Shown here piece after piece: positions 7,646 to 50,048 of a stretch of DNA of 50,048 nt. The notes under the pieces are model-generated. The model saw nothing but the letters and a program-made list of their open reading frames with translations. It was not told the origin of the DNA and did no database searches. Made by a program: the position numbers and the translations under genes. Source of the stretch: Escherichia phage vB_EcoS_IME347; sequence record MH051918; one strand, 5' to 3'. How positions within the stretch are numbered: position 1 is the first letter of the stretch; every line of letters begins with the position of its first letter.

Positions 7646-7692
7646 CACGAATTGCTAAAAGTTCCGCAAGGGCATTTGATAGAATGCCCTTA
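7641..7692 (+). promoter_or_regulatory. intergenic motif module (AATAGCACGAATTGCTAAAA + hairpin with TGATAGAAT)
   Basis: Motif overlaps stop TAG; inverted repeat caagggca..tgccctt enclosing TGATAGAAT. Confidence 0.5.
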
Positions 7693-7718
7693 TTGAAACG
7701 AAGCAAAGGAAAATAGAA

Positions 7719-8408: not shown

Positions 8409-8409
8409 G

Positions 8410-8640
8410 ATGTTTGGTTTAAGTGAAGCGCATTACAATATTGTCAAACGTGCGGCGCGCGGTCTGAACGACGCAATCAGCGAACTACCGAAGGCCGATC
8501 GAAAGAAGGAGCAAATCGTCATTAAGGTGATCGATAAGCATTACGAACCAGTTGCGACACTGATTAACCGGATGCGCTTCGTTTGGGTGGCGGGCTATCT
8601 CGCCGGGCGCGTAGGAAACAAAAATGGGGACTACGAATAA
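8410..8640 (+). CDS. hypothetical early protein (76 aa)
   Basis: In-frame ATG at 8410 within track ORF. Confidence 0.45.
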   Translation: MFGLSEAHYNIVKRAARGLNDAISELPKADRKKEQIVIKVIDKHYEPVATLINRMRFVWVAGYLAGRVGNKNGDYE

Positions 8641-8834
8641 TGATCGGGAAAGTGGATTGGGTGAAGTGCGAACGGGCATATCACGAAAGCGGGTTCACGG
8701 CGGGTTGCGAATATCAGGTTCTGAAGTTCGATTCCCGGCTCGGAGTCATGACGATCCAGAATGAGCGCGGCGAGCGTTGCTTGGTGAGTCACCCTCACGA
8801 CATAAATTACGGAGAGTTTCGAATTATCGATTGA
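8640..8834 (+). CDS. hypothetical early protein (64 aa)
   Basis: TAATG overlap with the upstream ORF. Confidence 0.45.
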   Translation: MIGKVDWVKCERAYHESGFTAGCEYQVLKFDSRLGVMTIQNERGERCLVSHPHDINYGEFRIID

Positions 8835-8990
8835 CTCGAATCTCTGAACGGTGATATCATTCTTTCCGTAGACAAAAGAGGCGCTTAGGCGCAACGCGCA
8901 TCGCGATAGATGCATAACCTTTGTAGTATCGGGGCGTAGTGGTAAGCCCGCCGCAGACCCGTAAGCGGCTCAAATTCACAGGAGCTTTAC

Positions 8991-9152
8991 ATGAAGCAAG
9001 ATATCAAAATCGAAATCAAAGTAACCCGAAACGGCGAAATCACTCGCTACAAAAAATCACTCAAGCCGGGCGAGGCTGTAATCGGTCGAATCGCTGGTGT
9101 GATGCTGAAGGCGCAGGAAGATGAAGCGATTCACGGTAAAGCTAACGATTAA
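8991..9152 (+). CDS. small hypothetical protein (53 aa)
   Basis: AGGAG 7 nt upstream of ATG 8991; partially overlaps the alternative track ORF 9121..9306, so only one of the two may be real. Confidence 0.3.
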   Translation: MKQDIKIEIKVTRNGEITRYKKSLKPGEAVIGRIAGVMLKAQEDEAIHGKAND

Positions 9153-9308
9153 GCGAATGGGGCGCAGGTGCTCAACCTGCCGCCAAAACTTCGAAACCGA
9201 AGTAAAAGCGAGTTCCGCAGAAGAAGCCGTAGCAAAGGCTAAACTCCAGTCAGGAGCCAATGCGGACACTCACCAGTTTTCAATCAACCTTGTAAGGGAA
9301 ATTTAACC

Positions 9309-9533
9309 ATGACAACTTTTTTATTCATTCTCGCCTTTATCGCTGTTTTCGTGCTTGGTATCGCGTCTGCTCTTCTGCTTATCGCCTTTATCGTGAAGCA
9401 CGACGCCGAAACTGACGAAGGCGTGTGGCTGACGTACAATCGCAGTGAGGATGTTTGGAAGTGCTTCGGTGATTTGCCAGCAGTCTACGCGAAGGCTCAA
9501 ACTCACAAAAAGCCGATACAAAAAATCTGCTAA
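9309..9533 (+). CDS. small membrane protein (74 aa)
   Basis: N-terminal transmembrane helix FLFILAFIAVFVLGIASALLLIAFIV; last ORF before the early-region terminator. Confidence 0.5.
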   Translation: MTTFLFILAFIAVFVLGIASALLLIAFIVKHDAETDEGVWLTYNRSEDVWKCFGDLPAVYAKAQTHKKPIQKIC

Positions 9534-9537
9534 AACT

Positions 9538-9561
9538 AAACCCGCCTCGGCGGGTTTTTTT
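9538..9561 (+). terminator. intrinsic terminator ending the early gene array
   Basis: GC stem cccgcc-tcg-gcggg followed by a T7 run. Confidence 0.7.
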
Positions 9562-9579
9562 ACGTCTGGAGTATGATAA

Positions 9580-9598
9580 AATAGCACGAAATGTTAAA
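9580..9598 (+). promoter_or_regulatory. intergenic motif copy (AATAGCACGAAATGTTAAA) upstream of terS
   Basis: Motif variant between the terminator and the RBS GGAGG at 9604-9608. Confidence 0.45.
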
Positions 9599-9614
9599 CA
9601 TCGGAGGACGTTTT

Positions 9615-16017: not shown

Positions 16018-16100
16018 CCGGAAGATCCTGAACCGGAAGAGGGAGGCGAAACTGACCCGGAAGAAGGTTCAGAGGGTTAACACAAAAACAGTTTGACGCT

Positions 16101-16118
16101 TTAACAAAAAGTGCTATC
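16101..16118 (-). promoter_or_regulatory. intergenic motif copy (TTAACAAAAAGTGCTATC, reverse variant) upstream of the capsid gene
   Basis: Reverse complement matches the AATAGCACTTTTTGTTAA variant; followed by a hairpin plus T run at 16121-16147. Confidence 0.4.
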
Positions 16119-16167
16119 ATAAAGCCGTTATCACTTAACGGCTTTTTTCACAAAAGAGGATGTAAAC

Positions 16168-19868: not shown

Positions 19869-19948
19869 TTTCTGTAGAATCACTGTATCAAATCAATACG
19901 GCGCTGTTTTAACAAAAAGTGCTATCACACCAATCAGGAGAAATGACA

Positions 19949-26028: not shown

Positions 26029-26053
26029 GACCCGCCTTGCGCGGGTTTTTTTT
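26029..26053 (+). terminator. intrinsic terminator (twin of 23894-23920) followed by TGTATAAT
   Basis: Identical cccgccttgcgcggg hairpin plus T run; extended -10-like TGTATAAT at 26058-26065; motif copy at 26079-26099. Confidence 0.6.
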
Positions 26054-26101
26054 CGCCTGTATAATGGCATCACCGATAAATAGCACAAAAGGTTAAACAT
26101 C

Positions 26102-30053: not shown

Positions 30054-30109
30054 TGGTGTTTCCTCGTTTCGTTTTGATGAATGCAGTATAGCCCCGTTTC
30101 CGGGGCTTG

Positions 30110-30129
30110 TTTTAGCAATTCGTGCTGTC
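30110..30129 (-). promoter_or_regulatory. intergenic motif copy (reverse orientation) with hairpin and TATACT
   Basis: Reverse complement reads TGACAGCACGAATTGCTAAAA and includes the stop codon of the 216-aa gene, followed on the - strand by hairpin ccccggaaacgggg and TATACT. Confidence 0.5.
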
Positions 30130-32686: not shown

Positions 32687-32767
32687 ACAGCACAAATAGC
32701 TAAACATGTAATTCTCGGGGTGTTATAATGCACCCCGTAGACAAGAAACCAATCAGGAGATAACGAA

Positions 32768-33421
32768 ATGATTCTTTCCCCACAGTCTGACCAAATCCTC
32801 CCGGCTCTGTTCAAGGCTCGCGGTAAATTCGTGAAGGCGAAGAAAGACCGACAAAACACCCACCTGAAAAACAAGTATGCAACGCTTGATTCCATGATGG
32901 ACGCCGTTACCCCGGCACTTACGGAAAACGGTATTATGATCATGCAATCCATGCTCGACACGAGCACGGACACAACCTTCCATCTGGAAACGATGCTGAT
33001 TCATGCGGAGAGCGGACAGTTTGCCCGGTTCTTTATGTCAATGCCGATCGCGAAGCGTGACCCTCAAGGCGTAGGCTCCGCAATGACTTATGCACGGCGA
33101 TACGGGTTGGCGGCGGCTCTCGGTATCAGTCAGGCGGACGACGACGCGCAGCTTGCCGTTAAGTCAGCGTCGGACTGGAAAAAGGATCTCGACGATTGCG
33201 AAACGTTCGACGAACTGAAAGACGTTTGGGCGAATGCCTTCCGCCAGTGTGACGCAGCGAACAGAACCATCGTTCAAGATCACTACAACCAACTGAAGGC
33301 GAAATTCGAAGTCGGCAAGGCTCGTCCGTTCGCCCCGGCGCAAAAGCCGAAGGTTGAAAAACAGGTTGAACCTGAGCAGCGCAAGCCTGTACAATCTCAA
33401 TCAATCGAAGGTTTCGAATAA
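32768..33421 (+). CDS. single-strand annealing protein (Erf-like, putative)
   Basis: 217 aa; YARRYGL-type motif; position between the exonuclease and SSB genes. Confidence 0.55.
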   Translation: MILSPQSDQILPALFKARGKFVKAKKDRQNTHLKNKYATLDSMMDAVTPALTENGIMIMQSMLDTSTDTTFHLETMLIHAESGQFARFFMSMPIAKRDPQGVGSAMTYARRYGLAAALGISQADDDAQLAVKSASDWKKDLDDCETFDELKDVWANAFRQCDAANRTIVQDHYNQLKAKFEVGKARPFAPAQKPKVEKQVEPEQRKPVQSQSIEGFE

Positions 33422-35797: not shown

Positions 35798-35817
35798 AAT
35801 AGCACTAATTGCTAAGC
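35798..35817. promoter_or_regulatory. intergenic motif copy (AAATAGCACTAATTGCTAAG) upstream of the tail fiber gene
   Basis: Palindromic motif variant between the primase terminator and the tail-fiber start. Confidence 0.4.
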
Positions 35818-36824: not shown

Positions 36825-36845
36825 TGAATTATCTCCAATAAAAAA

Positions 36846-36900
36846 CGCGTAACAGGAGTTTACCCGCTACGCGCTTTTGTGTTTTAGCTATTTGTGCTCT
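36846..36900 (-). promoter_or_regulatory. hairpin plus reverse-orientation motif copy at the end of the HTH gene
   Basis: On the - strand: motif GAGCACAAATAGCTAAAA (36883-36900, overlapping the stop of gene 36884..37327) followed by stem cgcgta..tacgcg and a T run. Confidence 0.45.
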
Positions 36901-37327
36901 CGACTTCATCCTTTCGAACTACGCGCATGAACTTGCGGTTCTTGCATCGTTTTTCAAGGCACTTTCCGTTAGAGTCGAACTTGAGATCGAATCGCAGCCA
37001 GCTTGCGCGATACCCGGTACAACCCTGACGACGATACGCGCGATGCGCCGCCTCCGCTCCCTGCCAAGAAATCATGCCGCGAACTTTCCATTCGTTCACA
37101 TTCTGATTTGTTACCTTCAGGGCTTTCGCCGTGGCGGAGGGGGAGCCGTAGAATTCGATCAGGGCGTCAAGTCTGGCGCGTAGTCCGGCGCGAACCTCAT
37201 CTTTCAGGATGTAGAATCCGCATCGCTTGCGAGGCTTTACATCTTTGCCCCGTCGTGTACCATTGTTCCCGTTCAGGTGACGACGATCGATTTCCCCGGT
37301 TGATTCTGCAATACGCTTGATTGTCAT
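36884..37327 (-). CDS. HTH-domain protein (YdaS/Cro-like), putative regulator
   Basis: Central segment GSPSATAKALKVTNQNVNEWKVRGMIS resembles a YdaS/Cro-type helix-turn-helix; divergent from the helicase gene. Confidence 0.4.
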   Translation of the reverse strand: MTIKRIAESTGEIDRRHLNGNNGTRRGKDVKPRKRCGFYILKDEVRAGLRARLDALIEFYGSPSATAKALKVTNQNVNEWKVRGMISWQGAEAAHRAYRRQGCTGYRASWLRFDLKFDSNGKCLEKRCKNRKFMRVVRKDEVESTNS

Positions 37328-37339: not shown

Positions 37340-37359
37340 AATAGCACTTTTTGTTAAAA
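37340..37359 (+). promoter_or_regulatory. intergenic motif copy (AATAGCACTTTTTGTTAAAA) upstream of the helicase gene
   Basis: Variant motif followed by inverted repeat gcgtg..cacgc enclosing TATTATAC. Confidence 0.45.
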
Positions 37360-37420
37360 CTAACTAATCGATGCGTGTATTATACAGTCAACGCACGAGT
37401 AACGCAAAGGATTAAGAACA

Positions 37421-39472: not shown

Positions 39473-39894
39473 TTACAGATAAGGGCGATTATTTAGAGTT
39501 TTACGAGCGCGACCCGAGCGACACGAGAAAGGAGGTAGTTCACCAAATTGAGAGCACTTCCTTTTTGAAAGTTCGACACCCTGACTTGCTGTTTTGGCAT
39601 AGTGTCAACGAGAACGAGAAGAGCAAGGCGACCGCAATGATTGATCAGCAATCCGGCTTATTGAAGGGAGTTAGTGACTTCGTTTTCCTGATTGGTTTCA
39701 ATCACCGATACCCGTTCGCCGCAATCGAACTTAAGCGCGTGAATAAGTCCGGCAAAGGCAAGGCGTCACCCGTAAGCGATGAACAGAAAGCCTTCTTGCG
39801 GAAGGTCAGGGAGCGAGGCGGGTTCGCCGCAGTAGCCTACGGGGTGGAGCAGTTAAAACTCGCAGTAGCTGAAATGCTCAAACAGCACGAATAG
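39469..39894 (+). CDS. VRR-NUC domain nuclease
   Basis: 141 aa; GVSDFV...AIELKRVN...EQKAF pattern typical of VRR-NUC; ATGA overlap with the helicase gene. Confidence 0.6.
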   Translation: MITDKGDYLEFYERDPSDTRKEVVHQIESTSFLKVRHPDLLFWHSVNENEKSKATAMIDQQSGLLKGVSDFVFLIGFNHRYPFAAIELKRVNKSGKGKASPVSDEQKAFLRKVRERGGFAAVAYGVEQLKLAVAEMLKQHE

Positions 39895-39954
39895 CTAAAA
39901 CAGCCGGAAAGGAATCCGGCATAATCACCACATCGAAACAACGGAGAGAAACAA

Positions 39955-40668
39955 ATGAAAGATATCGAAGATATTTCAACGATCGACTTTGCGGAAACTG
40001 GATGTTCATTTACTCGCGAAGCGCTGGCGGTTTCCGGGTATTATTCAGCGGTTAAAACTCCAACCTGCAAAGAAATCTCAGGCCGCAGATACAAGGGAAC
40101 CAATACGCCGGACGCCGTTCGCGATCTGTGGAGCACTTCTCGCGAGGTCATTGCGTACATGGAAGGCAGATATGGGAAATATGATCTTGACGCTGCGGCG
40201 AGCGAAGATAATAAGGTCTGTGAGAAATTCTACTCACAGGAAACTAACTGCCTAAAAAGATGGTGGGGCAAGAACAAGCACGTTTGGCTGAATCCGCCAT
40301 ACAGCCGCCCGGACGCCTTCGTTAAAAAGGCTATTGAGCAAATGGAGCACGGAAACCAAATTGACATGCTTCTGCCCGCCGATAATTCTACGGCATGGTT
40401 TACTGAGGCTCGCCGTAACGCTGCGGAAATCATCTGGATTGAAGGCGATCTTTATCAGGATCTTGACGGTACGGAATACTCCCGTTCAGGACGTTTGGCC
40501 TTCATTTCTGGTGAAACCGGAAAGCCAGTTGACGGCAACAATAAAGGCTCTGTTATCTTTATCATGCGCCAACTCGCGGAAGGTGAGAAGCAGAAAACCC
40601 ACTATGTCAGCATTGCGGATATTTGCCCGTCCGTTAAAAACAAACGCGCAAGAGCGAGGAATATCTAA
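39955..40668 (+). CDS. dam: DNA N6-adenine methyltransferase (phage Dam-type)
   Basis: Catalytic NPPY motif (WLNPPYS); 237 aa; follows replication genes as in T1-like phages. Confidence 0.75.
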   Translation: MKDIEDISTIDFAETGCSFTREALAVSGYYSAVKTPTCKEISGRRYKGTNTPDAVRDLWSTSREVIAYMEGRYGKYDLDAAASEDNKVCEKFYSQETNCLKRWWGKNKHVWLNPPYSRPDAFVKKAIEQMEHGNQIDMLLPADNSTAWFTEARRNAAEIIWIEGDLYQDLDGTEYSRSGRLAFISGETGKPVDGNNKGSVIFIMRQLAEGEKQKTHYVSIADICPSVKNKRARARNI

Positions 40669-40910
40669 TGAATGAGAAAACTGTTTGCCTGAATGAATTT
40701 GGTCAATGGATGCTGTTCCGTGGGCTGGCGTGTTATGCGCTGGAGCGTCACGGCTTGACGGAAAAGGAATTGGGTTGCTCCCTTTGGGAATTCACGGAGT
40801 CGCTTGATATGTCATTCGAGGAAATTCGAAGTCTTGATTTGGCTCAGTGGGCTACAAAAGTAATGGCGGACGCCGAAGAGCTTAGAAACGAGATCGTGAA
40901 AAAGCACTAA
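40668..40910 (+). CDS. hypothetical protein (80 aa)
   Basis: ATGA overlap with dam; stop adjacent to a motif copy at 40901-40918. Confidence 0.45.
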   Translation: MNEKTVCLNEFGQWMLFRGLACYALERHGLTEKELGCSLWEFTESLDMSFEEIRSLDLAQWATKVMADAEELRNEIVKKH

Positions 40911-40975
40911 TTGCTAAACGTACCCGGCGCAAGTCGGGTATTATTGTTTTATTGAAACGAAACGGAGAATCACAA

Positions 40976-41173
40976 ATGACTCGCATCAATGAAGCTTTCT
41001 TTAAAATGGCTCAGTCCTCCGCTAAGACGGCGACGGAATTAACCTCGTATCACGCCGGGCAATTTGATTGGGCTATCGCAATGGACTTCCTGAAAATGGC
41101 TTACTACCGTTGCACCGTTGAGGATATGGAAGGTTTCATTCGTGACGTTGAGAAGGTACTGAATAGTGATTAA
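40976..41173 (+). CDS. hypothetical protein (65 aa)
   Basis: ATG at 40976 after ACGGAGAA; in frame with track ORF 40952..41173. Confidence 0.4.
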   Translation: MTRINEAFFKMAQSSAKTATELTSYHAGQFDWAIAMDFLKMAYYRCTVEDMEGFIRDVEKVLNSD

Positions 41174-41438
41174 AGAATCTGGAAGGCAAGCCGTTTGGAG
41201 TCACGCAAAAGAAACGGGGCTGGCGGACGGGATCGCACTAATTGCTAAATACTTCGATATAAAAGACGTTAGTATTATCGGCAACGGGAAGATAACCTTC
41301 ATCGAAGAGCTTCCCCGGAAGTGCCACCGAGTCCCGGCAACTCCCGGACTTGAGTTTTACCGGGAGGAGGGTAAGCGAATCATGCAAGAATTTAAGGCGA
41401 GCAAAAATGACAAGAGAACTTCCCGGCTTAAACGGTAA
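41166..41438 (+). CDS. hypothetical protein (90 aa)
   Basis: Overlapping start; ORF in track. Confidence 0.4.
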   Translation: MIKESGRQAVWSHAKETGLADGIALIAKYFDIKDVSIIGNGKITFIEELPRKCHRVPATPGLEFYREEGKRIMQEFKASKNDKRTSRLKR

Positions 41439-41737: not shown

Positions 41738-42877
41738 ATGTCAATGTCAAAAATCACAACCGAACAGCTTATCGAAGAGCGCGAAAACGGCCTGACCCTT
41801 CGCGAGATCGCGGAGAAGTACGGGATGCATATCCGCACGGTTGAGGCTCGACACGCGAAGCTTGCAAAGGAAGGTCACTTCCACGGCAACAAGCACGTAG
41901 CCGCCAACGTTCCGACCGGGTTCGCCGTAAAAGGTACGTCCGTCATGATTGACGCCGAAGGCAACGAAAAGGTTCGCTGGGTTAAGACCGATCAGGACAA
42001 AGAGAAGATTTACCAACTCATGCAAGCGGCGCAGGTTGCATTTTGCGAAGAGTTGCCGCGCGAAGCCCCAACCCCGATCGAAATAAACAAGCGATTCGAC
42101 GAGGATTCGCTGGCGCTTTACCCGGTATTCGATCTTCATATCGGCGCACTGGCGCACAAGCACGAGTCCGGCGAGAACTACTCCACCGATATCGCGGAAG
42201 ATGTTCTGAACAAGTATTTCGGCTATGCAGTCGGCAAGGCTCCTAACGCACAAAAAGCCGTCCTGTTAATCGGCGGTGACTTCCTGCACTCTGACGGCCT
42301 TGACGCTGTTACCCCGGCAAGCGGTCATGTTCTGGATCAGGACTCGCGTTATGCCAAACTGGTTTACGTCGCAATCCGCGCTACTCGCCGGGCGATCGCT
42401 AAGATGCTGGAGAAACATGCTGAGGTTGAGGTTCAGATTATCGAAGGCAACCACGATCAGGCAGGTATGATTTGGCTACGCGCTGCAATGGCGGCATACT
42501 ACGAGGACGAGCCGCGCGTGAACGTTGACGTTAGCCCGATGATTCTGCACAAAACCCGTTGGGGCAAAACGCTGTTAGGCTACACTCACGGTCACACGAT
42601 GAAGAAAGCGGACACTCGCCTTGCAGCAATGGCGGCAGACTTCCGCGATGATTTCGGCGCGAGCAAGTACGTTTACACTCACAGCGGTCATTGGCATCAC
42701 CAGACGATCACCGAGCATACGTTGGGTATCGACGAGGTTCACGGTCAACTCGGGGCGAAGGATGCTTATGCGGCTCGCGGCGGCTGGCGAGCGTACCGTC
42801 AAGCGGCTGTTATCGTGTACTCAAAAGAGTTTGGCGAGATCGGGCGCTTTATCTACCGTCCAGAAATGACGGCGTAA
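41738..42877 (+). CDS. HTH-fused calcineurin-like metallophosphoesterase
   Basis: N-terminal HTH-like LTLREIAEKYGMHIRTV; phosphoesterase motifs DLHIG, GGDFLHSD, GNHD, GHTH/GHWH in canonical order; RBS AAGGAA. Confidence 0.65.
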   Translation: MSMSKITTEQLIEERENGLTLREIAEKYGMHIRTVEARHAKLAKEGHFHGNKHVAANVPTGFAVKGTSVMIDAEGNEKVRWVKTDQDKEKIYQLMQAAQVAFCEELPREAPTPIEINKRFDEDSLALYPVFDLHIGALAHKHESGENYSTDIAEDVLNKYFGYAVGKAPNAQKAVLLIGGDFLHSDGLDAVTPASGHVLDQDSRYAKLVYVAIRATRRAIAKMLEKHAEVEVQIIEGNHDQAGMIWLRAAMAAYYEDEPRVNVDVSPMILHKTRWGKTLLGYTHGHTMKKADTRLAAMAADFRDDFGASKYVYTHSGHWHHQTITEHTLGIDEVHGQLGAKDAYAARGGWRAYRQAAVIVYSKEFGEIGRFIYRPEMTA

Positions 42878-42896
42878 ATAGCACAAATAGCTAAAG
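42876..42896 (+). promoter_or_regulatory. intergenic motif copy (AAATAGCACAAATAGCTAAAG) with hairpin + TTATAGT
   Basis: Motif overlaps stop TAA; followed by inverted repeat ggggtaacg..gttacccc. Confidence 0.45.
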
Positions 42897-42951
42897 ACAA
42901 ATCAGGGGTAACGAGTTATAGTTACCCCACACAAACAAAGGAGATTTAGCA

Positions 42952-43585: not shown

Positions 43586-44083
43586 ATGGGCGCAATCAAA
43601 AATACATTGGTTGCGGCTGGCGTTTCTTCTGCGCTTGTCCTCATGCCGCAACTGATCGAGAAGTACGAGGATGTGAAGTTTGAAGTCTACTACGATATCG
43701 CGGGCGTCCCAACTGTATGCGCTGGCATTACCGGGAAAGACGTGATTATCGGCAAGAAGTACACGAAGCGGGAGTGTGACGCTCTGCTCATTAAGCATAT
43801 CAATTATGCTGCGTCGCAGGTTGATAAAGCCGTCACCTATCCGATCCCGGTAACGATGCGGGCGGCGATGTACAGCTTCGCCTACAATGCCGGAACCGGA
43901 GCGTTTCGCAAATCAACCATGCTCAAACTGATTAATAAGGGTGAGCTTAAAGCGGCCTGTAACGAGCTATGGAAGTGGACTTACTTCTATAACCCCAAGA
44001 CAGGCAAGAAAGAGAAATCGCGCGGCCTGAAGAACCGCAGGGCTTCAGAATTTGAATATTGCATGAAGGAGTTGCCGAAATGA
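43586..44083 (+). CDS. SAR-type endolysin (GH24 lysozyme, phage 21 R / P1 Lyz-like)
   Basis: N-terminal signal-anchor-release-like segment; catalytic region [25 protein letters not shown] and downstream [16 protein letters not shown]...WTY resemble SAR lysozymes. Confidence 0.8.
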
Positions 44084-44463
44084 AAAGAACAATCTTAGCT
44101 TGCTGCATTGCATTCGCTATCAGCACAATGACGGGCTGCGCTTTAAATCCGCTGGATGCGCTGACAGGTAAACCCGAAGTATCTGCGCAGGTTGGCGCGG
44201 AGAACGTAAAGCAGGGGATCGGCGTCACAGCAAAGAACGAGCAGAAGAGCGAAACCAACGTGAAGGATTCGCAGATCGGGAAGGTTGACTCCTCCACCAA
44301 GAAAACGGAGAGCATTAAGGCGGGAACCATTCAGGCCGAACGCATCGAAGTAAACAATGGTGGCGGTTGGGACTATTTCGGATTCGGCTTTATCGTGGCG
44401 TGGGTACTGGCGGCGCTGTTAGTGTGGGCTGTGGAATACCGGAAAAAACACAAGGAGGCTTAG
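44080..44463 (+). CDS. unimolecular spanin (lipoprotein signal + C-terminal TMD)
   Basis: ATGA overlap with the endolysin; lipobox-like MTGC near the N-terminus and C-terminal [23 protein letters not shown], as in the T1 gp11-type u-spanin. Confidence 0.6.
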
Positions 44464-44478
44464 GCCTCCTTTTTTTAT
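44445..44478. terminator. bidirectional intrinsic terminator
   Basis: aaaaaacacaaggaggc-ttag-gcctcc followed by a T7 run, between the lysis cassette and the - strand array. Confidence 0.65.
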
Positions 44479-44598
44479 TCGTACCGGGTAGCGCTCAGAA
44501 TGCAAATTCCGTCGTCGTCTGCGAGGTTGTGACACTTCGCGCCTGATGCCCGCATAGACGACAGGAGGAGCGAAAGTATCGCTGTATTAAACTCCTCC

Positions 44599-44994
44599 TC
44601 ACTGAGCTTGTGCCTTGCGCACAATTCTACGTTCGAATCTATCAACATTTCTATTCTTGCCGAAGAGTTCTTCATCACTCAATTCCTCAATATGCATCAT
44701 TTCCCACGTATAGCGATTGCGATATCCCTCAAGGCAAGCGAATTGCATCATCACCGGGCGCTTACGCTTCCCTTTGCAGAAGTATTCCTGACCAACCCGA
44801 TCCAGATACCCCTCAGTCATGCAGCGAGCGCAAAACTCCTTTGACAACGCACTCGTGAAAGTGCGCTTATCAAGATCTGCATTTCGTGCCATACGCTCAG
44901 TTTCTGGATGCCCGTAAATGAACCGGGCAATATGCTGACGTGTGTACTTGTCGTAACCCTCACAGAATTTGAACAGGTCAAGCAGAATCATCAC
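44599..44994 (-). CDS. hypothetical Cys-containing protein (131 aa)
   Basis: ORF in track directly downstream of the ATPase gene; the alternative overlapping ORF 44475..44678 (-) cannot be excluded. Confidence 0.4.
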   Translation of the reverse strand: MMILLDLFKFCEGYDKYTRQHIARFIYGHPETERMARNADLDKRTFTSALSKEFCARCMTEGYLDRVGQEYFCKGKRKRPVMMQFACLEGYRNRYTWEMMHIEELSDEELFGKNRNVDRFERRIVRKAQAQ

Positions 44995-45003
44995 TTCATC
45001 ACC

Positions 45004-46566
45004 TTACATTAAGCGCGGATTGATATAAATGTTGTCGTCCACACGGCAAACGTAATTCATGCTTTCCAGCGTTTCCAGCAACGTTTCGATACGCTCCGCA
45101 ACCTTTTGCTGCCCGTTAAACGGAGTGACGTTCCGGCACTTCGCGATCACGCTCTGAATCTGCGCCCGGCCTTTGTTCTTTTTGGCGATCTCACTAACCA
45201 CGTCGATAAGCTTGCGTGATTCAGCTTCATCACCTGCGAAACCTGCGGCGTTTGCAGACGAGAGATAAGTTTTTGACAACTCGTTAAACGTCATGATCGC
45301 TTCCTGCATTGTGTCCAAGTCGATCTCACGATTCGCCCGGTTCGGCTTCTCACCAGCCCAATTCTTGATCGTGTGAATCACGGACGCGATACGAATTACG
45401 TGTTTATCGAATTTCCCCAAGTGACCGCGCAACATGGAGTGTGAGTATTTCCCGCCCGCCGCGAAGCTGGCTTCCATATCCTGACGAGCAAGGTTCAGCG
45501 CTCGGGTTGCGTGAAGGCTCAGGCTGAAAACTACCTTCTCTTCGTTCATGACGTTATGAACGAGGCGGTAATATTTGCTCACGAGCGCCTTGTCAACTGG
45601 CTTGTAAACTGCGTCGCCGTTCTCGTCACACAATACGCGAGTACCCAAACGAGGCTCTTCGCGAACCAGTAAGAAACGCTCGGAAACACCGATACCGCGC
45701 TGACCTGCATCCATGATGCCCTTGATTGTTTCGTCCTGCGCGATTACGCAAATTGCACCAACCGGACGTAAAGAAAGGTTGTTGTCCTGATTGGATCGAG
45801 CTACTTCCATATGGTTCATATCCCAAGCCTTCAGGATTAGCTCGCTGTTCGACTTCTTATCAGTCCCGCCATACGTCAAACCGAGAAGTGTATTGATTGC
45901 CGTCGCTTCGTCCGAGATAACGGAGAAGTTACCCTGAATCGCCGCAACCTTAGCCAAACCCTCTGGAGTAGGATCGGAAACCGCAAACACAACGTTAGCA
46001 GCCTTTTTGAGCTTCTCTTCGATTTTCTCCTTCTCTTCGTACAGGGCAACCATTGAGTTTCCTTTTACGTCGTTCTTGATCTCCTTTTCGATCTTGCGGA
46101 GTTCCCCGGCGAGGCGTGAACGTTCGGCCTTACGCTTCTCGTTGATGCGGTCAATCTCTGCTCGCATCGGGTTAATGGCTGCGGAGTTGATCGCAGATTT
46201 ACCCGTTGACGGCGGCTGGCTGATTACCATGTAAAGTGCGGTTGGCTGCTCTTCACCGTGATAGTCAACCCAAAAGCGACCGAGCATCGCGGCGGACATA
46301 CATCCGATAAAGTGAGCGTATGCGGACGAAACCGGGAATTGCACTGATTCAGCTTTAGCCTTTGCGTATTCGTAAACGAGGTTATCGCCACCGAGGGAAA
46401 TCAACGGAAAACGATCGTTGCCGCTGTTAATCTCTTCGGGCTTATCCCAAAAAGCAAATGAATCCGAGAAGCCGTTTTCGCGAATAGCGATCGCCACCGG
46501 ATTTACTCCAGTAGCTGCGGCGATTTCTTGGATCTGATTGATGGAAAGTTTATTTTGGAAGAACAT
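45004..46566 (-). CDS. P-loop ATPase, putative replicative helicase/primase-associated (DUF3987-like)
   Basis: Walker A ISQPPSTGKSA and Walker B-like VISDEAT; 520 aa; preceded by a motif module at 46585-46637. Confidence 0.55.
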   Translation of the reverse strand: MFFQNKLSINQIQEIAAATGVNPVAIAIRENGFSDSFAFWDKPEEINSGNDRFPLISLGGDNLVYEYAKAKAESVQFPVSSAYAHFIGCMSAAMLGRFWVDYHGEEQPTALYMVISQPPSTGKSAINSAAINPMRAEIDRINEKRKAERSRLAGELRKIEKEIKNDVKGNSMVALYEEKEKIEEKLKKAANVVFAVSDPTPEGLAKVAAIQGNFSVISDEATAINTLLGLTYGGTDKKSNSELILKAWDMNHMEVARSNQDNNLSLRPVGAICVIAQDETIKGIMDAGQRGIGVSERFLLVREEPRLGTRVLCDENGDAVYKPVDKALVSKYYRLVHNVMNEEKVVFSLSLHATRALNLARQDMEASFAAGGKYSHSMLRGHLGKFDKHVIRIASVIHTIKNWAGEKPNRANREIDLDTMQEAIMTFNELSKTYLSSANAAGFAGDEAESRKLIDVVSEIAKKNKGRAQIQSVIAKCRNVTPFNGQQKVAERIETLLETLESMNYVCRVDDNIYINPRLM

Positions 46567-46619
46567 CGTTTTAACTCCTTATTGGACGGGGTAAATTATA
46601 CCCCGCCCATACTACACGC

Positions 46620-46637
46620 TTTTAGCTATTTGTGCCA
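46620..46637 (-). promoter_or_regulatory. intergenic motif copy (reverse) with hairpin carrying TATAAT
   Basis: On the - strand: TGGCACAAATAGCTAAAA overlapping stop of gene 46642..47058, then stem ggggtataatttacccc. Confidence 0.5.
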
Positions 46638-46641
46638 TTCG

Positions 46642-47058
46642 TTACAAGTATTTCGCTTCGAACGTTGTCCCGTCCGCGATGGAGAATCCCACCTCTTCGC
46701 GGAACAGAGTCCAGCGACATCCTTCGCTATCGAAGATGTACCCGGCGACGCCACCGAGCGCCCGACCACTTTCAACCTGATAGCGCTTGCCTACTTTGAA
46801 GGACTTCTTCATCGGATTCTTGTGATCAAGCCCGGTACACTTCAGGGTTTTCGTTTTCAACTCGGTGAACTTCGCAAAGTGTATTTCATCGACGTTGTGG
46901 ATCTGGAATTCGTCATGCTTTCCGAGCGGGTAAAACTTTCCGTCAGGGTGCTTTACTTCTCGCGTACCGTCGTCATGCTCGCGGCCTTTATACAGGTTGT
47001 TTGTTGTGAATCCGGTAACTGATTCCGCTGAAGTGCATTTCAGTTTGATAGTTTTCAT
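46642..47058 (-). CDS. hypothetical protein (138 aa)
   Basis: RBS AGAAGGAA on the - strand; N-terminal MKTIKLKCT...FTTNNLYKG motif is related to ORF 4726/7442/43070. Confidence 0.5.
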   Translation of the reverse strand: MKTIKLKCTSAESVTGFTTNNLYKGREHDDGTREVKHPDGKFYPLGKHDEFQIHNVDEIHFAKFTELKTKTLKCTGLDHKNPMKKSFKVGKRYQVESGRALGGVAGYIFDSEGCRWTLFREEVGFSIADGTTFEAKYL

Positions 47059-47124
47059 CGATTCATTCCTTCTGATTGGTTATCTTGAATAAGGCCACTA
47101 TATCAAATGGCCTTACGGCAATAT

Positions 47125-47143
47125 TAACAAATCGTGCTATTTA
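47125..47143 (-). promoter_or_regulatory. intergenic motif copy (reverse) with hairpin carrying TGATATAGT
   Basis: On the - strand: AAATAGCACGATTTGTTAA overlapping the stop of gene 47141..47386, followed by aaggcca..tggcctt around TGATATAGT, nearly identical to the module at 3640-3690. Confidence 0.5.
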
Positions 47144-47386
47144 CCAAGGAATATAATCCTTTCCCGGCTCCGAATCATCTTCGGCGGTCATAACGAAATT
47201 TGGATCGAATTCGCTTTCTGCATCCATATCCATTTCACCAAGAGCCTGTTCCAAGGTTAAATCCTGATACGCAACTTTGATACAATATTCGCGATTCAGT
47301 CCGGCATCCTGCGCAGTTAAAAAACGATGCCAGAAGTTATCATCATTATTTTTGCAAGGTGCATTGGTCATTTCGATTAACTCCAC
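47141..47386 (-). CDS. hypothetical acidic protein (81 aa)
   Basis: ORF in track; overlapping start of the downstream gene. Confidence 0.45.
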   Translation of the reverse strand: MELIEMTNAPCKNNDDNFWHRFLTAQDAGLNREYCIKVAYQDLTLEQALGEMDMDAESEFDPNFVMTAEDDSEPGKDYIPW

Positions 47387-47601
47387 GCATTGATGTAGAT
47401 TGAGTTTTCGACAAGCATCGCGCGGATATCCGGCATTGATGCATTTACCAGCTTTCCGCCCGGAATGGTCCCGACGATGTTATTTCCACGGGAACCTTTC
47501 GTTACGGTAATAACATTAAAGCCTGAAGCGCGATCCAGTTTGATGGTCACTTTGCCTTTTGCTTCGTAGTGCTTGATAATGCTATTTGCTTTAGAGTTCA
47601 T
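47377..47601 (-). CDS. hypothetical protein (74 aa)
   Basis: ORF in track preceded on the - strand by a motif module (47640-47687). Confidence 0.45.
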   Translation of the reverse strand: MNSKANSIIKHYEAKGKVTIKLDRASGFNVITVTKGSRGNNIVGTIPGGKLVNASMPDIRAMLVENSIYINAWS

Positions 47602-47666
47602 CTTTATTTCCTTGTTTTGTCGTTTCGTTTCGATGGGGTGATAATATCAAATCACCCCGAGGTTGT

Positions 47667-47686
47667 TTTAGCAATTCGTGCTATTT
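47667..47686 (-). promoter_or_regulatory. intergenic motif copy (reverse; AAAATAGCACGAATTGCTAAAA on - strand)
   Basis: Exact consensus in reverse orientation, followed on the - strand by hairpin ggggtgat..atcacccc. Confidence 0.5.
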
Positions 47687-47827
47687 TGAAATGCGATATT
47701 GCATTCCGCTCAAGTCCTCAGGCGACACCGAATAACACGGCTCCCAAGTTCCGTTGACCTTATTGTATTTGCGCACACCTCCAGCGATGCGATACATGCC
47801 GCCGTTATTGTCGTAATAAGTAATCAT
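47681..47827 (-). CDS. small hypothetical protein (48 aa)
   Basis: ATGA overlap with the stop of gene 47824..48147; stop TAG inside the motif copy; below track cutoff. Confidence 0.3.
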   Translation of the reverse strand: MITYYDNNGGMYRIAGGVRKYNKVNGTWEPCYSVSPEDLSGMQYRISK

Positions 47828-48147
47828 TGCTTTCCGTCCCACGTCGTGTACATGGTGGACAATCGAACCTTATTCCGTTTCTTCATGTCCTCGTAGCCGT
47901 TGCTCTGCATTTCACGGAATCGAATGATTTCCTCTTTCGTTTCACGATCCGCAATTACGCGAGAGCTTGCACCATTCAGGAAAGCAACCCGGCTTAAATA
48001 GTCGGATCCGTACTTACGAACGCAAGCGGCAACGGTTCTCTCCATGATGTGGACTTGCAGATCCTTCGCGGCCTTCTCTACAGTATCCCCGATACTGCCG
48101 CCCCAGTGAACATCATGATTGACGCGCAACTCATAAACCTTGCTCAT
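47824..48147 (-). CDS. hypothetical protein (107 aa)
   Basis: ORF in track; overlapping start/stop with neighbours. Confidence 0.45.
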   Translation of the reverse strand: MSKVYELRVNHDVHWGGSIGDTVEKAAKDLQVHIMERTVAACVRKYGSDYLSRVAFLNGASSRVIADRETKEEIIRFREMQSNGYEDMKKRNKVRLSTMYTTWDGKQ

Positions 48148-48368
48148 AATTTAACCTCATTGAATTCGATGAAATCTTGGACATAGGCGCATTCTTTCGC
48201 GTCCTCTTGCCCGGTTAACACTTCACACCCGCCATTGAAGAGCAAGCAACCCGAGCACAAATTGCCGGGGAAATGCTCCTCAACAATCGCAATCCCGGTA
48301 CAACGTCCGCCGCCGAAACGGTGCGGGAAGTCATACGCGCGACAATTGCAGGTTACTTGCTTTCGCAT
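48144..48368 (-). CDS. small Cys-rich protein (74 aa), possible metal-binding
   Basis: Eight cysteines including CNC, CSGC and GGC clusters; ORF in track. Confidence 0.45.
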   Translation of the reverse strand: MRKQVTCNCRAYDFPHRFGGGRCTGIAIVEEHFPGNLCSGCLLFNGGCEVLTGQEDAKECAYVQDFIEFNEVKL

Positions 48369-48556
48369 TATTCCGCCTCAGACACAATCACAGGCTCCAG
48401 CTTTTCAAGGCGAACCCGAAAGCTTTCCATGAAAGACTTGCGCTTGATTAAATCTTCGAAAGTCTCAACGGCGATTGATGCGCGATCTCCGCAATAACAG
48501 ACATTCTCTTTCCCGCTTTCTTTGCTGCGGGCAACTACCCGGTAAATTTTGCTCAC
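48368..48556 (-). CDS. small hypothetical protein (about 62 aa)
   Basis: Track ORF 48368..48604 would overlap the upstream gene; a GTG at 48556 overlapping that gene's TGA gives a non-overlapping start; uncertain. Confidence 0.3.
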   Translation of the reverse strand: MSKIYRVVARSKESGKENVCYCGDRASIAVETFEDLIKRKSFMESFRVRLEKLEPVIVSEAE

Positions 48557-48798
48557 TGCACTGGCTCCCCGTCTAACAAGATGAATACCGCTTCGATGAT
48601 GCATTGCGCTTTGGTCAGTGGCTGAACATCACGCCCGGCAATCTGCCACTTTTTGCCAGCGACGTGATTCACGGTTAAGCTTTTCCCGCCCCTGCACACG
48701 ATGAAATACTTCTGCTCCATCATGCCTTTGGTGTTTACCTCACCGACGACAACGCCATTATCCGTTGCGAAGTCGATCGCGTCAGTTACCTTGTTCAT
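48553..48798 (-). CDS. hypothetical protein (81 aa)
   Basis: ORF in track preceded on the - strand by a motif module (48858-48879). Confidence 0.45.
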   Translation of the reverse strand: MNKVTDAIDFATDNGVVVGEVNTKGMMEQKYFIVCRGGKSLTVNHVAGKKWQIAGRDVQPLTKAQCIIEAVFILLDGEPVQ

Positions 48799-48857
48799 TG
48801 CCTTAATCTCCGTGATTCGTTTCGATGGGGTAATTATGCCAAACTACCCCGATCGCG

Positions 48858-48879
48858 TTTTAACAAAAAGTGCTATTTA
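48858..48879 (-). promoter_or_regulatory. intergenic motif copy (reverse variant) with hairpin
   Basis: On the - strand: AAATAGCACTTTTTGTTAAAA overlapping stop of gene 48877..49194, followed by ggggtagtttggcataattacccc. Confidence 0.5.
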
Positions 48880-49194
48880 GAGCGACTCTTCCAGAATTTG
48901 ACGGATGCGGTTGATTGCCTGTAACTTCATGAGATCCCACGAGTGAGATCCGGCGTTCGGTAATTCGTCAAACAGGTTGCTCACCATATCCGTGACCTGC
49001 TCAATACCGGCCTCTTTTGCAGCCTGTTCCAGTGTCGGCTCGGTGACGTCAATCCAGATACCGTCCTTAATGAATTTCGCGACAGGCGGACGATAGGCCA
49101 GTTCCATTTCGATCCCGTCCGCGCCCATAAGGAAGAAAGTCCCGTTGCGTTCGATGAAGTACATTTTCAGTTTGGTGTGGAAATACTTTTTCAT
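48877..49194 (-). CDS. hypothetical protein (105 aa)
   Basis: ORF in track. Confidence 0.45.
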   Translation of the reverse strand: MKKYFHTKLKMYFIERNGTFFLMGADGIEMELAYRPPVAKFIKDGIWIDVTEPTLEQAAKEAGIEQVTDMVSNLFDELPNAGSHSWDLMKLQAINRIRQILEESL

Positions 49195-49206
49195 GGTTAT
49201 TATTCC

Positions 49207-49437
49207 TTATGCAATGATGAATTTGAAAAGGTCTGCGCCGTAAGCCGTGCGAACAACACAACTCCACGCTGCGCGGCCTTCATGTCCGGAGTCAAGATTA
49301 ACCTGAATCTTAAAGCCAATGCGATCGGTCACGAATACTTTTCCGTCCTCGCGGGTTGCGGTGTACTGATTGCCGGAAACGAAAGCGGCATCACCGAGGG
49401 AGTTAGAAGCAAACACACAAATCATTTTCTTGGTCAT
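49207..49437 (-). CDS. hypothetical protein (76 aa)
   Basis: ORF in track; RBS on the - strand. Confidence 0.45.
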   Translation of the reverse strand: MTKKMICVFASNSLGDAAFVSGNQYTATREDGKVFVTDRIGFKIQVNLDSGHEGRAAWSCVVRTAYGADLFKFIIA

Positions 49438-49497
49438 TTTTGGGAAATCTCTCTGATTGGTTGATGTGTTAAGTATGCCCCGAATCCGATCAGGGCG

Positions 49498-49515
49498 TTT
49501 AGCAATTCGTGCGGT
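49498..49515 (-). promoter_or_regulatory. intergenic motif copy (reverse) with hairpin
   Basis: On the - strand: CCGCACGAATTGCTAAAC immediately after the stop of gene 49516..49794, followed by hairpin gccctgatcggattcggggc. Confidence 0.45.
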
Positions 49516-49794
49516 TTAGATAGATTTCTTCGCAACCTTGTATGCTTCCTTGAAAGCCGGAACATCTTCGATTTCAATCCAGAAGCCGGAGCCATAACCA
49601 TCCTCATAGCAAGGGCACTGATCGCAATAGTCGCCCCAAGTTTTCTCAACGCCACCGATAGAAAACCCTGTGGACATTTCGCAAAGCGCTTCCTCTACAG
49701 CTTCGATCTTGTCGGCGTCGTTGTCCATGATTACAAAGTTCCACTTGCCGTTGTATTCAGTACCGAGTTTGATAGATTCGCGCTTGAGTTTCAT
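49516..49794 (-). CDS. hypothetical acidic protein (92 aa)
   Basis: ORF in track; first gene of the leftward array. Confidence 0.45.
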   Translation of the reverse strand: MKLKRESIKLGTEYNGKWNFVIMDNDADKIEAVEEALCEMSTGFSIGGVEKTWGDYCDQCPCYEDGYGSGFWIEIEDVPAFKEAYKVAKKSI

Positions 49795-49860
49795 GAGTTG
49801 CTCCGTTGTTTTGTGTGCTTCGTTTCGATGAGTGTATTATGCCAAACCAAGCCGATCGAT

Positions 49861-49880
49861 GTTTAGCAAAAAGTGCTATT
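49861..49880 (-). promoter_or_regulatory. intergenic motif copy (reverse variant) at the head of the leftward array
   Basis: On the - strand: AATAGCACTTTTTGCTAAAC, upstream of gene 49516..49794. Confidence 0.45.
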
Positions 49881-50048
49881 CCTGAAATTGTCGATTATTC
49901 CACCGATTCTGGAATAACTGGAATACTTGATGATTACTCATGATTGCAAATGACAAGTTGTGATTATTGCGTGATGTGGAATGATTGCTGTGATTGTTGC
50001 TTGTAATGCAATGAATGTGGAGGGGAGATTATTATGATGCGCTCCTCG

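Follow-up and report, generated by a model that had tools for sequence, protein, structure and literature searches.

The intergenic repeat of Escherichia phage vB_EcoS_IME347 probably marks an array of marbox-type promoter modules joined to insulating hairpins

In the 2024 re-annotation of phage TLS, 18 intergenic direct repeats of 21 nucleotides (nt; DR1-DR18) with the consensus aaATAGCACnnnTTGnTAAAA were described, which are also present in T1, Rtp and Rogue1, and only three sigma-70 promoters were found in TLS. The authors suggested that the repeats could be stoperators, enhancer sites or UP elements and posed their function as an open question (PMC11447400). Here, we analyzed the corresponding motif in Escherichia phage vB_EcoS_IME347 (sequence record MH051918), whose whole sequence of 50,048 bp is called the window in the following. 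The window is the complete, circularly closed genome of a T1-like siphophage (Drexlerviridae), with two divergent arms separated by a large intergenic region: one of small genes that runs leftward (44599-49880) and one that runs rightward (450-9600). Positions 50048 and 1 are contiguous, because T1 1-65 aligns to window 49967-50029 and the T1 copy of the motif at 103 corresponds to the window copy at 19. The nearest relatives are Citrobacter phage IME-JL8 and Escherichia phage SRT8, with about 76-78% nucleotide identity over only a part of the length. Judged by consensus and position, the window motif is the published Drexlerviridae repeat, and its existence was already known. What is new, and in our view likely although not certain, is the reading of this repeat as an array in which marbox-type promoters are coupled to insulating hairpins.

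As in TLS, T1, Rtp and Rogue1, the copies of the window follow the consensus aaATAGCACnnnTTGnTAAAA with the same G/T/A subgroups, are intergenic, point the way transcription runs and lie about 76 nt upstream of start codons, and the same odd copies ahead of the capsid and J genes are conserved. The difference from the earlier work lies in the new genome and in the connection to a -10 element, to hairpins and to the marbox, none of which was made in the TLS paper. A literature search with motif strings, T1-like transcriptomes and marbox-phage links returned the TLS paper as the only one that carries the motif, and no link of these phages to the marbox. For comparison we used six genomes from five genera (the window, IME-JL8, T1, TLS, Klebsiella phage Sushi and Rtp) with a total of 127 motif copies, and promoter positions are counted from the predicted start site throughout.

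The closest described promoters outside the phages are the class II promoters of the mar-sox-rob(-ram) regulon of E. coli and Salmonella. The published binding site of MarA, SoxS and Rob is 5'-GCAHWWWWTGYYAAA-3' (PMC6900184), and its GCAC and AAA elements, which are 7 nt apart, are contacted by the pair of helix-turn-helix (HTH) motifs of MarA (PMC8811837). Class II marboxes are in forward orientation, overlap the -35 region and cluster near -41, and their promoters combine a canonical -10 element with no recognisable -35 element (PMC10268841, PMC12052159). The phage consensus GCAC-KWW-TTG-Y-TAAA agrees with this site even where it varies: the variable positions (-43 to -41 and C/T at -37) are the degenerate W and Y of the marbox, and the layout CACG/CACT, 7 nt, AAA has the spacing of the MarA HTH contacts. 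Using the marbox consensus as an independent query, 29 window sites with at most one mismatch were found, 10 of them perfect, versus 0.88 expected, and these are the same sites as those of the phage motif. The same query gave 15-24 sites per genome in the five relatives versus 0.3-1.4 in shuffles.

The geometry is also that of class II promoters. The phage 15-mer spans -47 to -33 with its centre at -40 from the predicted start, and the gap between AAA and the -10 element is 20 nt in 86 of the 127 copies. The E. coli micF marbox GCACTGAATGTCAAA (ACAGCACTGAATGTCAAAAC) is located at -48 to -34 with its centre at -41, and its gap of 20 nt between AAA and TAGAAT is the same as in the phage; the fumC marbox is centred at -39 with a gap of 19 nt. 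With micF, fumC, lpxC P2, lpxL and rfaY the phage modules, whose starts are predicted, have in common the 15-nt consensus, the forward orientation, the position at about -40 over the -35 region, and a poor or absent -35 element together with a canonical -10 element. They differ in that the host promoters form a host regulon, whereas the modules belong to a virulent phage, form one unit with a stop codon, an RNA hairpin and a leader that is conserved, and have an activator whose binding is predicted. In addition, host marboxes are described as degenerate (PMC10268841), whereas the phage carries about 22 near-consensus copies in 50 kb. Taken together, sequence and geometry are strong evidence that the motif is a marbox, and as the sites are set at the distance from a promoter at which activators work, about 25 promoters of the phage may depend on a stress regulator of the host.

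The frequency of the motif is far beyond chance. TAGCAC-N3-TTGYTAAA occurs in about 29 copies in the window versus less than one expected, and TAGCACGAATTGCTAAA has 25 matches with up to three mismatches versus 0.11 expected, a number which none of 100 shuffles reached; two additional weak matches at 42009 and 34366, both intragenic, are probably due to chance. A first-pass annotation, made from the sequence alone, had estimated about 30 copies, which agrees with our counts of 25 (phage motif) and 29 (marbox consensus). We recovered the six copies it had placed on the minus strand (46621-46637, 47123-47139, 47667-47683, 48859-48875, 49498-49514 and 49862-49878) as well as its further copies at 19-35, 16100-16116, 19908-19924, 26081-26097, 30111-30127, 32688-32704, 35800-35816, 36883-36899, 37342-37358, 39883-39899, 40902-40918 and 42879-42895. 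Its view of one motif family at gene-cassette junctions, which occurs in both divergent small-gene arrays and at isolated sites, was borne out, and neither of the two explanations it had named as possible refutations applies: base composition or k-mer bias fails to account for the frequency, and the motif is present at the equivalent junctions in IME-JL8, T1, TLS, Rtp and Sushi.

The position relative to stop codons was also described correctly. Each minus strand copy adjoins the stop codon of the preceding gene and lies about 60-80 nt ahead of the next start codon, and at 47667 the TAG of the motif itself is the stop codon. Genome-wide, 22 complete modules follow a gene, and in every one of them the stop codon of that gene is within the motif or at most 5 nt away; the motif supplies TAG and TAA stops in two of the three reading frames.

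What had been missed is the promoter, of which the motif is only the upstream third. In 86 of the 127 copies from the six genomes, a distance of exactly 22 nt separates TTGNTA from the best -10 hexamer, and in 100 of 127 the distance is 21-23 nt, whereas only 1.1% of random positions have a -10 element placed in this way. Alignment of the 86 modules revealed A-11 and T-7 in every case, G-14 in 77 and T-17 in 57; the +1 position is an A in 77 of them, and a pyrimidine occupies -1 in 82. Upstream, the conserved element extends from -51 to -31; the region from -35 to -30 reads AAAACn, and there is no -35 hexamer. The fixed 22-nt spacing, the -10 and start signature and the missing -35 element are the signature of an extended -10 sigma-70 promoter without a -35 element and argue that each module is a promoter. 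All 24 complete modules in the window are oriented toward the downstream gene or, in the case of 19908, toward their own -10 element. A standard scan of 44000-50048 for sigma-70 promoters and terminators gave counts no higher than in shuffles and did not call the modules; consensus scans miss them because they are extended -10 promoters without a -35 element.

Several other assignments of the motif were rejected. TTGCTA cannot serve as a -35 element: it would leave a spacer of 22 nt, and 17 nt downstream of it the hexamer is unlike a -10 element, with an A at its second position in only 5 of 86 modules. Sigma-54 promoters have GG at -24 and GC at -12 in the consensus TGGCAC-N5-TTGC with exact spacing; the phage motif TAGCAC-N3-TTGC is 2 bp short and has AG in place of GG, and its likeness to a compressed sigma-54 promoter is, with this spacing, probably a coincidence. 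One copy (46621) reads TGGCAC like the sigma-54 element. None of the consensus sequences of sigma-28, IHF, Fis, CRP and NtrC, which were compared by hand, fits the motif.

A promoter of this kind might also work without any accessory protein, if an upstream element contacted by RNA polymerase, UP-like and bound by the C-terminal domain of the alpha subunit (alpha-CTD) or made of phased A-tracts, boosted the extended -10 element. G-14 together with a good -10 element can function without a -35 element, the element at -51 to -31 overlaps the UP zone, and short runs of A recur with approximately helical phasing near -51, -42 and -34; the likeness to UP elements was noted by the TLS authors (PMC11447400). 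However, UP elements consist of A/T tracts that are recognised through the minor groove, whereas the best-conserved positions of the phage element include G and C (G-47, C-46, C-44 and G-38, with 1.6-2.0 bits), and the exact match to a transcription factor consensus, degenerate positions included, would be left unexplained. We therefore regard this explanation as very unlikely and return to the marbox-type promoter.

A self-contained promoter cassette would start with the stop codon of the preceding gene, with TAG or TAA supplied by the motif. The 20-nt marbox ATAGCAC-KWW-TTGYTAAAAC (-50 to -31) and an 18-nt spacer would follow, then the extended -10 element (G at -14, TAnnnT) and a C-rich discriminator, and finally the A at +1, an unstructured CA-rich leader, the Shine-Dalgarno sequence and the start codon. 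The copies of the arrays and of the replication region are, in our judgement, probably each the upstream element of such a cassette with a predicted start site.

The second constituent of the modules is a hairpin between the marbox and the start, a GC-rich inverted repeat whose sequence varies while its pairing is kept. Of 100 modules, 85 can fold with a minimum free energy (MFE) at or below -5 kcal/mol, and the z-score averages -2.95. In 58 of the 100 modules the hairpin encloses the -10 element, spanning -24 to -1, in 22 it is located in the spacer and in nine it overlaps the -10 element. Stem pairing is 0.60; slid partners give 0.39-0.47 and column shuffles 0.52 +/- 0.01, and none of 1000 shuffles reached 0.60. 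A compensatory path is visible for one pair: the window has C-G, T1 has U.G and IME-JL8 has U-A. In 83 of 100 modules the RNA of the sense strand folds more stably than that of the antisense strand (p = 2e-11). Because the stem is upstream of the start of its own module and ends at -1, the hairpin would be present only in read-through transcripts, and it probably acts on read-through RNA. Its role would be to attenuate, terminate or stabilise the 3' ends of RNA that enters from the preceding gene, and it would thereby insulate each cassette, as shown for the elements of T4-type phages described below. Other annotators marked the same hairpins as terminators. Most of them are followed by AUCGAAAC or ACACCAAAC, unlike an intrinsic terminator, a U-tract follows only in the window modules 36883 and 40902, and the terminator scan found none of the hairpins of the minus strand arm on the sense strand. 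No Rfam family was found at gathering thresholds.

The closest parallel to this combination are the promoter-early stem-loops (PeSLs) of T4-type phages (PMC2839356, PMC4122927). In these, too, a stem-loop with a G-run and a C-run covers the -10 element or is placed between it and the -35 position; the elements border small orphan genes in hyperplastic regions, exceed these genes in conservation, and have been proposed to insulate and shuffle cassettes. PeSLs differ in having a canonical -35 element, an AT-rich upstream region and no marbox, whereas the phage modules have no -35 element at 16-18 nt from the -10 element. Moreover, promoter activity, terminator activity and the formation of mini-circles have been demonstrated experimentally for PeSLs (PMC2839356), whereas the modules described here are known from their sequence.

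The structural conservation could also mean that motif and hairpin act mainly in read-through RNA, where two successive stem-loops (UAGCA-N5-UGCUA and the GC hairpin) would together signal processing, termination or anti-termination between cistrons and the -10 element would be incidental. In line with this, 93.5% of the motif positions pair as RNA and the variant TGTTA pairs via G.U, the GC hairpin has a sense-strand bias and compensatory changes, the copies at the small-terminase (terS) and J genes are in the leader, right at the ribosome-binding site, and the hairpins were called terminators by other annotators. Yet an RNA signal does not explain the invariant A-11 and T-7, G-14, the A at +1 and the distance kept to one nucleotide, none of which depends on the place of the hairpin. 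Modules of Rtp, Skarpretter and Lumpael are often without a hairpin and nevertheless keep the spacing, which indicates that the hairpin is not essential to the promoter, reversed copies would form a different RNA, and Rfam is empty. We consider an RNA signal as the main function highly improbable and assume instead a promoter that is combined with a hairpin.

Which protein reads the marbox is the next question. Host sigma-70 RNA polymerase would be recruited by a monomeric activator of the MarA/SoxS/Rob family (RamA in Klebsiella), which would bind the marbox in forward orientation in the class II position overlapping -35, as at E. coli micF and fumC. MarA and SoxS are stress-induced, and Rob would be the likeliest candidate because it is made constitutively. 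A phage-encoded homologue of MarA was not detected in the six genomes (phmmer --max, best E 0.63), and about 25 window proteins revealed no AraC-type domain. Rtp gp1 (DUF7174) has a weak pairwise match to MarA, which is not significant in the full search (E 0.63) and has no Pfam support.

The distribution of the modules also points to the host. The unit of marbox, 20 nt and -10 element is found beyond the Drexlerviridae too, in Skarpretter, in Murrayvirus Lumpael and in Pseudotevenvirus phages of 175-178 kb. Escherichia phage Skarpretter has nine sites; its virion is P22-like, it has only replication enzymes in common with the window, and it lacks a homologue of T1 gene product 23 (gp23), an HTH regulator of the window phage group. 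Salmonella phage Lumpael carries modules and has neither a gp23 homologue nor another common small protein. Module-like DNA is present in 683 phage records, almost all of them from hosts of the Enterobacterales. The record 'Stutzerimonas phage STP9' (OR754315.1), a relative of Skarpretter ascribed to a non-enteric host and with seven marbox sites in class II spacing, is flagged UNVERIFIED_ORG, and this host is doubtful. In the T4-like (Pseudotevenvirus) genomes the modules sit among small hypothetical genes, the kind of region where PeSLs were defined.

A phage-encoded reader has to be weighed against this. The most obvious candidate is the gp23-family regulator at 36884-37327 on the minus strand, a protein of 147 amino acids with a weak Cro/YdaS-type HTH and the invariant basic N-terminal segment DxRxxNGNNGxxRxxDxKxR. 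Its gene belongs to the core of the six Drexlerviridae genomes and is flanked by the motif: its stop codon is inside one marbox and its ribosome-binding site adjoins another, which lies between this site and the promoter of the gene. This protein, or an unrecognised early protein, could read the motif as an operator, stoperator or enhancer, and the likeness to the marbox would be coincidence or mimicry. The pseudo-palindrome TAGCA-N5-TGCTA with half-sites 10 bp apart and the occurrence of copies in both orientations near late genes would fit such a protein, and stoperator or enhancer-binding roles were proposed by the TLS authors (PMC11447400). However, the putative recognition helix of the gp23-like proteins differs between genera (TNQNVNEW, NLKTVWGW, SIQVVQQW and TPQAVEEW), whereas the motif is invariant, and Skarpretter, Lumpael-type and T4-like phages have modules without a gp23 homologue or another common small protein. 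Furthermore, the right half-site allows TGTTA and AGCTA, which break the palindrome but still fit the Y positions of the marbox. The variable helix and the absence from Skarpretter and other motif phages weaken the gp23-like regulator as the reader, and we consider a phage protein in this role unlikely.

The described phage systems of this kind also differ from the modules. T4 middle promoters, with the MotA box and sigma appropriation by AsiA, resemble them in that an asymmetric site, repeated throughout the phage, replaces the -35 element, and the stoperators of mycobacteriophage L5 in that repeated asymmetric sites punctuate the transcription units. Both systems require phage-encoded proteins, whereas we saw no homologue of these in the window phage. 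The MotA box is located at -30 and the phage element at -40, so this assignment was rejected. L5-type stoperators, which have no fixed relation to a -10 element, were rejected as well: 86 of 127 copies are at one fixed distance from the -10 element, and no candidate repressor is common to all motif phages. A host factor is the simplest reader because there is no MarA homologue in the phages, the gp23 helix is variable, phages without gp23 have modules, and the hosts are almost all Enterobacterales. We think it probable that the reader is a host factor common to these hosts; its binding and the resulting activation are predicted from the sites.

Several points weigh against a host-activated, hairpin-insulated promoter. 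First, without stress, most of the Rob in laboratory cultures is reportedly sequestered in aggregates, and MarA and SoxS are not induced (PMC10268841). T1-like phages nonetheless grow well in such cultures, so that either the dependence is partial, as the G-14 extended -10 element has basal activity, or a different factor is used. Screens for T1 resistance yield receptor genes, and rob is not known to be among their hits. Second, the phage element is tighter than a marbox requires (A-51, A-50, A-48, T-40, A-32 and C-31); the use of the motif as a stop codon may explain part of this extra constraint, and a second reader may exist. Third, the pseudo-palindrome and the reversed orientation of about five copies would both suit a dimeric phage protein. 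Fourth, the hairpin is dispensable in some modules: it is weak in 11 of 100, and only 9 of 15 Rtp modules have an MFE at or below -5 kcal/mol. A function as terminator is putative, as most hairpins lack a U-tract. Finally, the literature search turned up no binding, transcription or start-site data for T1-like phages.

Beside its role in transcription, the module seems to be connected with the exchange of gene cassettes. Within the arms, most of the BLAST similarity to the relatives falls in the modules, about 18 of 43 open reading frames (ORFs) lack a homologue in the five relatives, and five of eight long homology blocks end inside a module. The DUF5417 gene and its flanking modules (49446-49948) form a cassette that has module 49498 at its boundary and matches positions 40516-41015 of Klebsiella phage Sushi with 77% nucleotide identity (87% for the protein). 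It is absent from IME-JL8, T1, TLS and Rtp; by this distribution it looks like an exchange between genera. As the modules of about 80 nt are far better conserved than the intervening genes, they provide homology for cassette exchange, and the pattern of the arms fits a PeSL-like exchange without proving it.

The first-pass annotation had gone further and regarded cross-arm similarity as a sign of recent duplication or of recombination between junctions. It had called modules of the two arms near-identical. The pair 3642 (plus strand) and 47123 (minus strand) is indeed the most similar of all, with 75% identity over 53 variable nt in comparison with a median of 40% and with an identical core of 29 nt that includes the hairpin, but the wording was too strong, since identity is 77% over 74 nt, and the proteins encoded downstream are unrelated. 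A recent duplication does not hold: 3642 is orthologous to plus strand arm copies in T1, TLS and IME-JL8, and 47123 to minus strand arm copies in T1 and IME-JL8. Because each copy is orthologous to same-arm copies with its own diagnostic differences, the paralogy predates these genera. That modules are islands of nucleotide similarity between unrelated genes and could serve as linkers still stands, whereas a recent duplication behind the cross-arm similarity does not.

If the modules were chiefly recombination linkers, with the cross-arm similarity due to recent duplication or exchange in this genome, one could point to their being the main islands of similarity to relatives in the arms, to the five of eight blocks that end in a module, to the DUF5417 cassette which is common only with the distant Sushi and has module 49498 at its boundary, to the RecE-like and Erf-like recombination proteins encoded by the phage, and to PeSL elements as a precedent (PMC2839356). 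But intergenic breakpoints are expected anyway, because recombinants with disrupted genes are selected against, the two copies 3642 and 47123 are old, and a pure linker needs neither a fixed -10 spacing nor a marbox consensus. A primary function as linker is hence scarcely credible.

The leftward arm contains six modules, all on the minus strand. The first one (49795-49879) precedes the first gene of the arm, the DUF5417 gene 49516-49794 (Pfam); it has the marbox ATAGCACTTTTTGCTAAACA (49879-49860), a -10 element CATAAT (49841-49836) preceded by TGg, a predicted start at A 49829 and a weak hairpin. Directly after the stop codon of this gene follows the module 49438-49515 with its marbox at 49515-49496, a spacer hairpin (49496-49477), the -10 element CATACT (49477-49472), a predicted start at 49465 and the start codon at 49437. 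In the module 48799-48876 the marbox (48876-48857) is a perfect consensus match and the hairpin 48850-48827 encloses the -10 element CATAAT (48838-48833), with the predicted start at 48826 and the start codon at 48798. In the module 47602-47684 the TAG of the marbox (47684-47665) is the stop codon of ORF 47681-47842, the hairpin 47658-47635 encloses the -10 element TATTAT (47646-47641, preceded by TGa), the start is predicted at 47634, and the start codon is at 47601. The module 47059-47140, the cross-arm look-alike of module 3641-3718, has a degenerate marbox ATAGCACGATTTGTTAATAT (47140-47121) and the hairpin aaggccatttgatatagtggcctt (47115-47090), which encloses the -10 element TATAGT (47102-47097), and its start codon is at 47058. 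Finally, the module 46567-46638 ahead of the helicase-like gene 45004-46566 has the marbox ATGGCACAAATAGCTAAAAG (46638-46619) and the -10 element TATAAT (46600-46595), and its hairpin reaches as far as the predicted start 46588.

The rightward array (969-7718, plus strand) has eleven complete modules with marbox 20-mers from 969, 1234, 2251, 2585, 2952, 3641, 4651, 5471, 5977, 7174 and 7642, in which the -10 element lies 22 nt (once 23 nt) after TTGNTA and the start is predicted 7 nt past the -10 element. In the middle region, a complete minus strand module (30054-30128) has its marbox at 30128-30109, a spacer hairpin at 30107-30090 and the -10 element TATACT at 30090-30085. A complete plus strand module (32687-32767) precedes the Erf-like recombinase gene 32768-33421 and has the -10 element TGtTATAAT at 32724-32729 with a spacing of 21 nt. 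Between the genes for the HTH regulator and the primase lies the minus strand module 36825-36900, whose marbox (36900-36881) contains the stop codon of the regulator and whose hairpin (gcgcgtagcggg...cgcg, then T6) is a genuine intrinsic terminator that holds the -10 element TAAACT in its loop. The plus strand module 37341-37420 precedes the helicase gene (GTG 37421), with the marbox at 37341-37360 and the -10 element TATTAT at 37378-37383. Three further complete plus strand modules between 39882 and 42951 have their marboxes at 39882-39901, 40901-40920 and 42878-42897, and in the one at 40901 a U-rich tract follows the hairpin. An intragenic plus strand copy at 41233-41249, inside ORF 41166-41438, is off spacing (25 nt). 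This copy is kept in IME-JL8 and T1, and its -10-like hexamer is 25 nt away in the window and 22 nt in T1. It may be an internal promoter for the metallophosphatase-like gene 41738-42877, whose product of 379 amino acids has a weak N-terminal match to HTH_23.

The copies near late genes are not equivalent to those of the arrays, which the first-pass annotation had overlooked. The copies 16100, 19908 and 35800 are reversed relative to the adjacent gene, and the copies 9582 and 26081 have no -10 element at module spacing and are downstream of a -10 element that follows a terminator. The predicted capsid-gene promoter TTGACG-N16-TATCAT (16093-16144, plus strand) has its spacer filled by a reversed marbox (16100-16114), which is the same in IME-JL8, T1 and TLS. 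As its predicted start is within the 5' arm of the terminator hairpin 16122-16144, transcripts from the capsid promoter would escape the terminator that stops read-through. The plus strand copy 9582-9598 is 16 nt before the terS ATG (9615), just after the terminator 9540-9563 and TATGAT 9572-9577. The J junction (26058-26101, plus strand) has the terminator 26031-26053, cTGTATAAT at 26058-26065, a forward marbox-like copy at 26081-26097 with the ribosome-binding site, and the ATG at 26102. The order of terminator, -10 element, marbox and start codon is found at both genes in IME-JL8 and T1 and in TLS at the J junction only; because both marboxes are downstream of the predicted start, they would be in a repressing or roadblock position. 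The reversed copy 35800-35816 (plus strand), near a minus strand tail-fibre gene with its start at 35780, is 12 nt from the ribosome-binding site of this gene.

In two places predicted promoters are opposed. An antisense class II module without a gene to serve (19875-19925, minus strand; marbox 19925-19906, -10 element TACAGT 19887-19882) faces the plus strand TAGAAT 19875-19880 upstream of the gene for the tape-measure chaperone (G). The -10 element of the helicase module (37378-37383) overlaps an opposing canonical promoter, TTGCGT-17-TATAAT (37409-37379, minus strand), of the HTH regulator gene, and T1 keeps this opposed pair of helicase and regulator promoters (TTGAAT-17-TATAAT). With overlapping or adjacent -10 elements, both pairs (19875-19925 and 37341-37409) look like a mutually exclusive switch. 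The late-gene arrangements are conserved in the relatives, and their layout suggests that at late promoters the same factor could be a repressor or a competitor.

The head of the rightward arm (19-80, plus strand) carries a class I-type promoter with a reversed marbox TTTAGCAAAAAGTGC (19-33), 18 nt, TTGACT (52-57), a 17-nt spacer and TACAAT (75-80). The marbox is centred at about -61 from the predicted start, which agrees with the class I arrangement of a reversed marbox at about -62 together with good -35 and -10 elements. The marRAB promoter (class I) has a similar layout with the reversed marbox TTTAGCAAAACGTGG 19 nt upstream of TTGACT, in comparison with 18 nt for TTTAGCAAAAAGTGC in the window. 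The spacing differs by 1 bp, and T1 keeps the layout of the window; the phage has one such promoter, and its function is predicted. Direct repeats of GTGACAARATTACAY at 38-52 and 98-112, with a degenerate copy at 128-139, flank this promoter. The window contains two exact copies of GTGACAARATTACAY and one with two mismatches at 31506 versus 0.25 expected, and the repeats may be an operator or a packaging or replication signal.

To our knowledge, T1-like phages have no polymerase or sigma factor of their own. The reading as class II marbox and extended -10 element would account for about 20 missing promoters per genome, and the modules would be an example of PeSL-like insulated, portable promoter cassettes outside T4-type phages. 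More speculative, and in our estimate rather doubtful, is a wider role in T1-like phages, Skarpretter, Murrayvirus and some T4-like enterobacterial phages: nearly all early and middle promoters would be wired to the host regulators MarA, SoxS, Rob or RamA, the same protein would act as repressor or competitor at late promoters, and replicating phage DNA with its 25-30 high-affinity sites per genome would gradually titrate the activator and thereby time the switch from early to late transcription. If true, infection would be coupled to the antibiotic, bile and oxidative-stress state of the host, and titration would incidentally deprive the host of its stress regulon. Coliphages and Klebsiella phages of this very common group, which includes the therapeutic Webervirus phages and the laboratory contaminant T1, would then depend for their productivity on multidrug-resistance regulators, with a bearing on phage-antibiotic synergy, on infection in the bile-rich gut and on strains with constitutive MarA or RamA.

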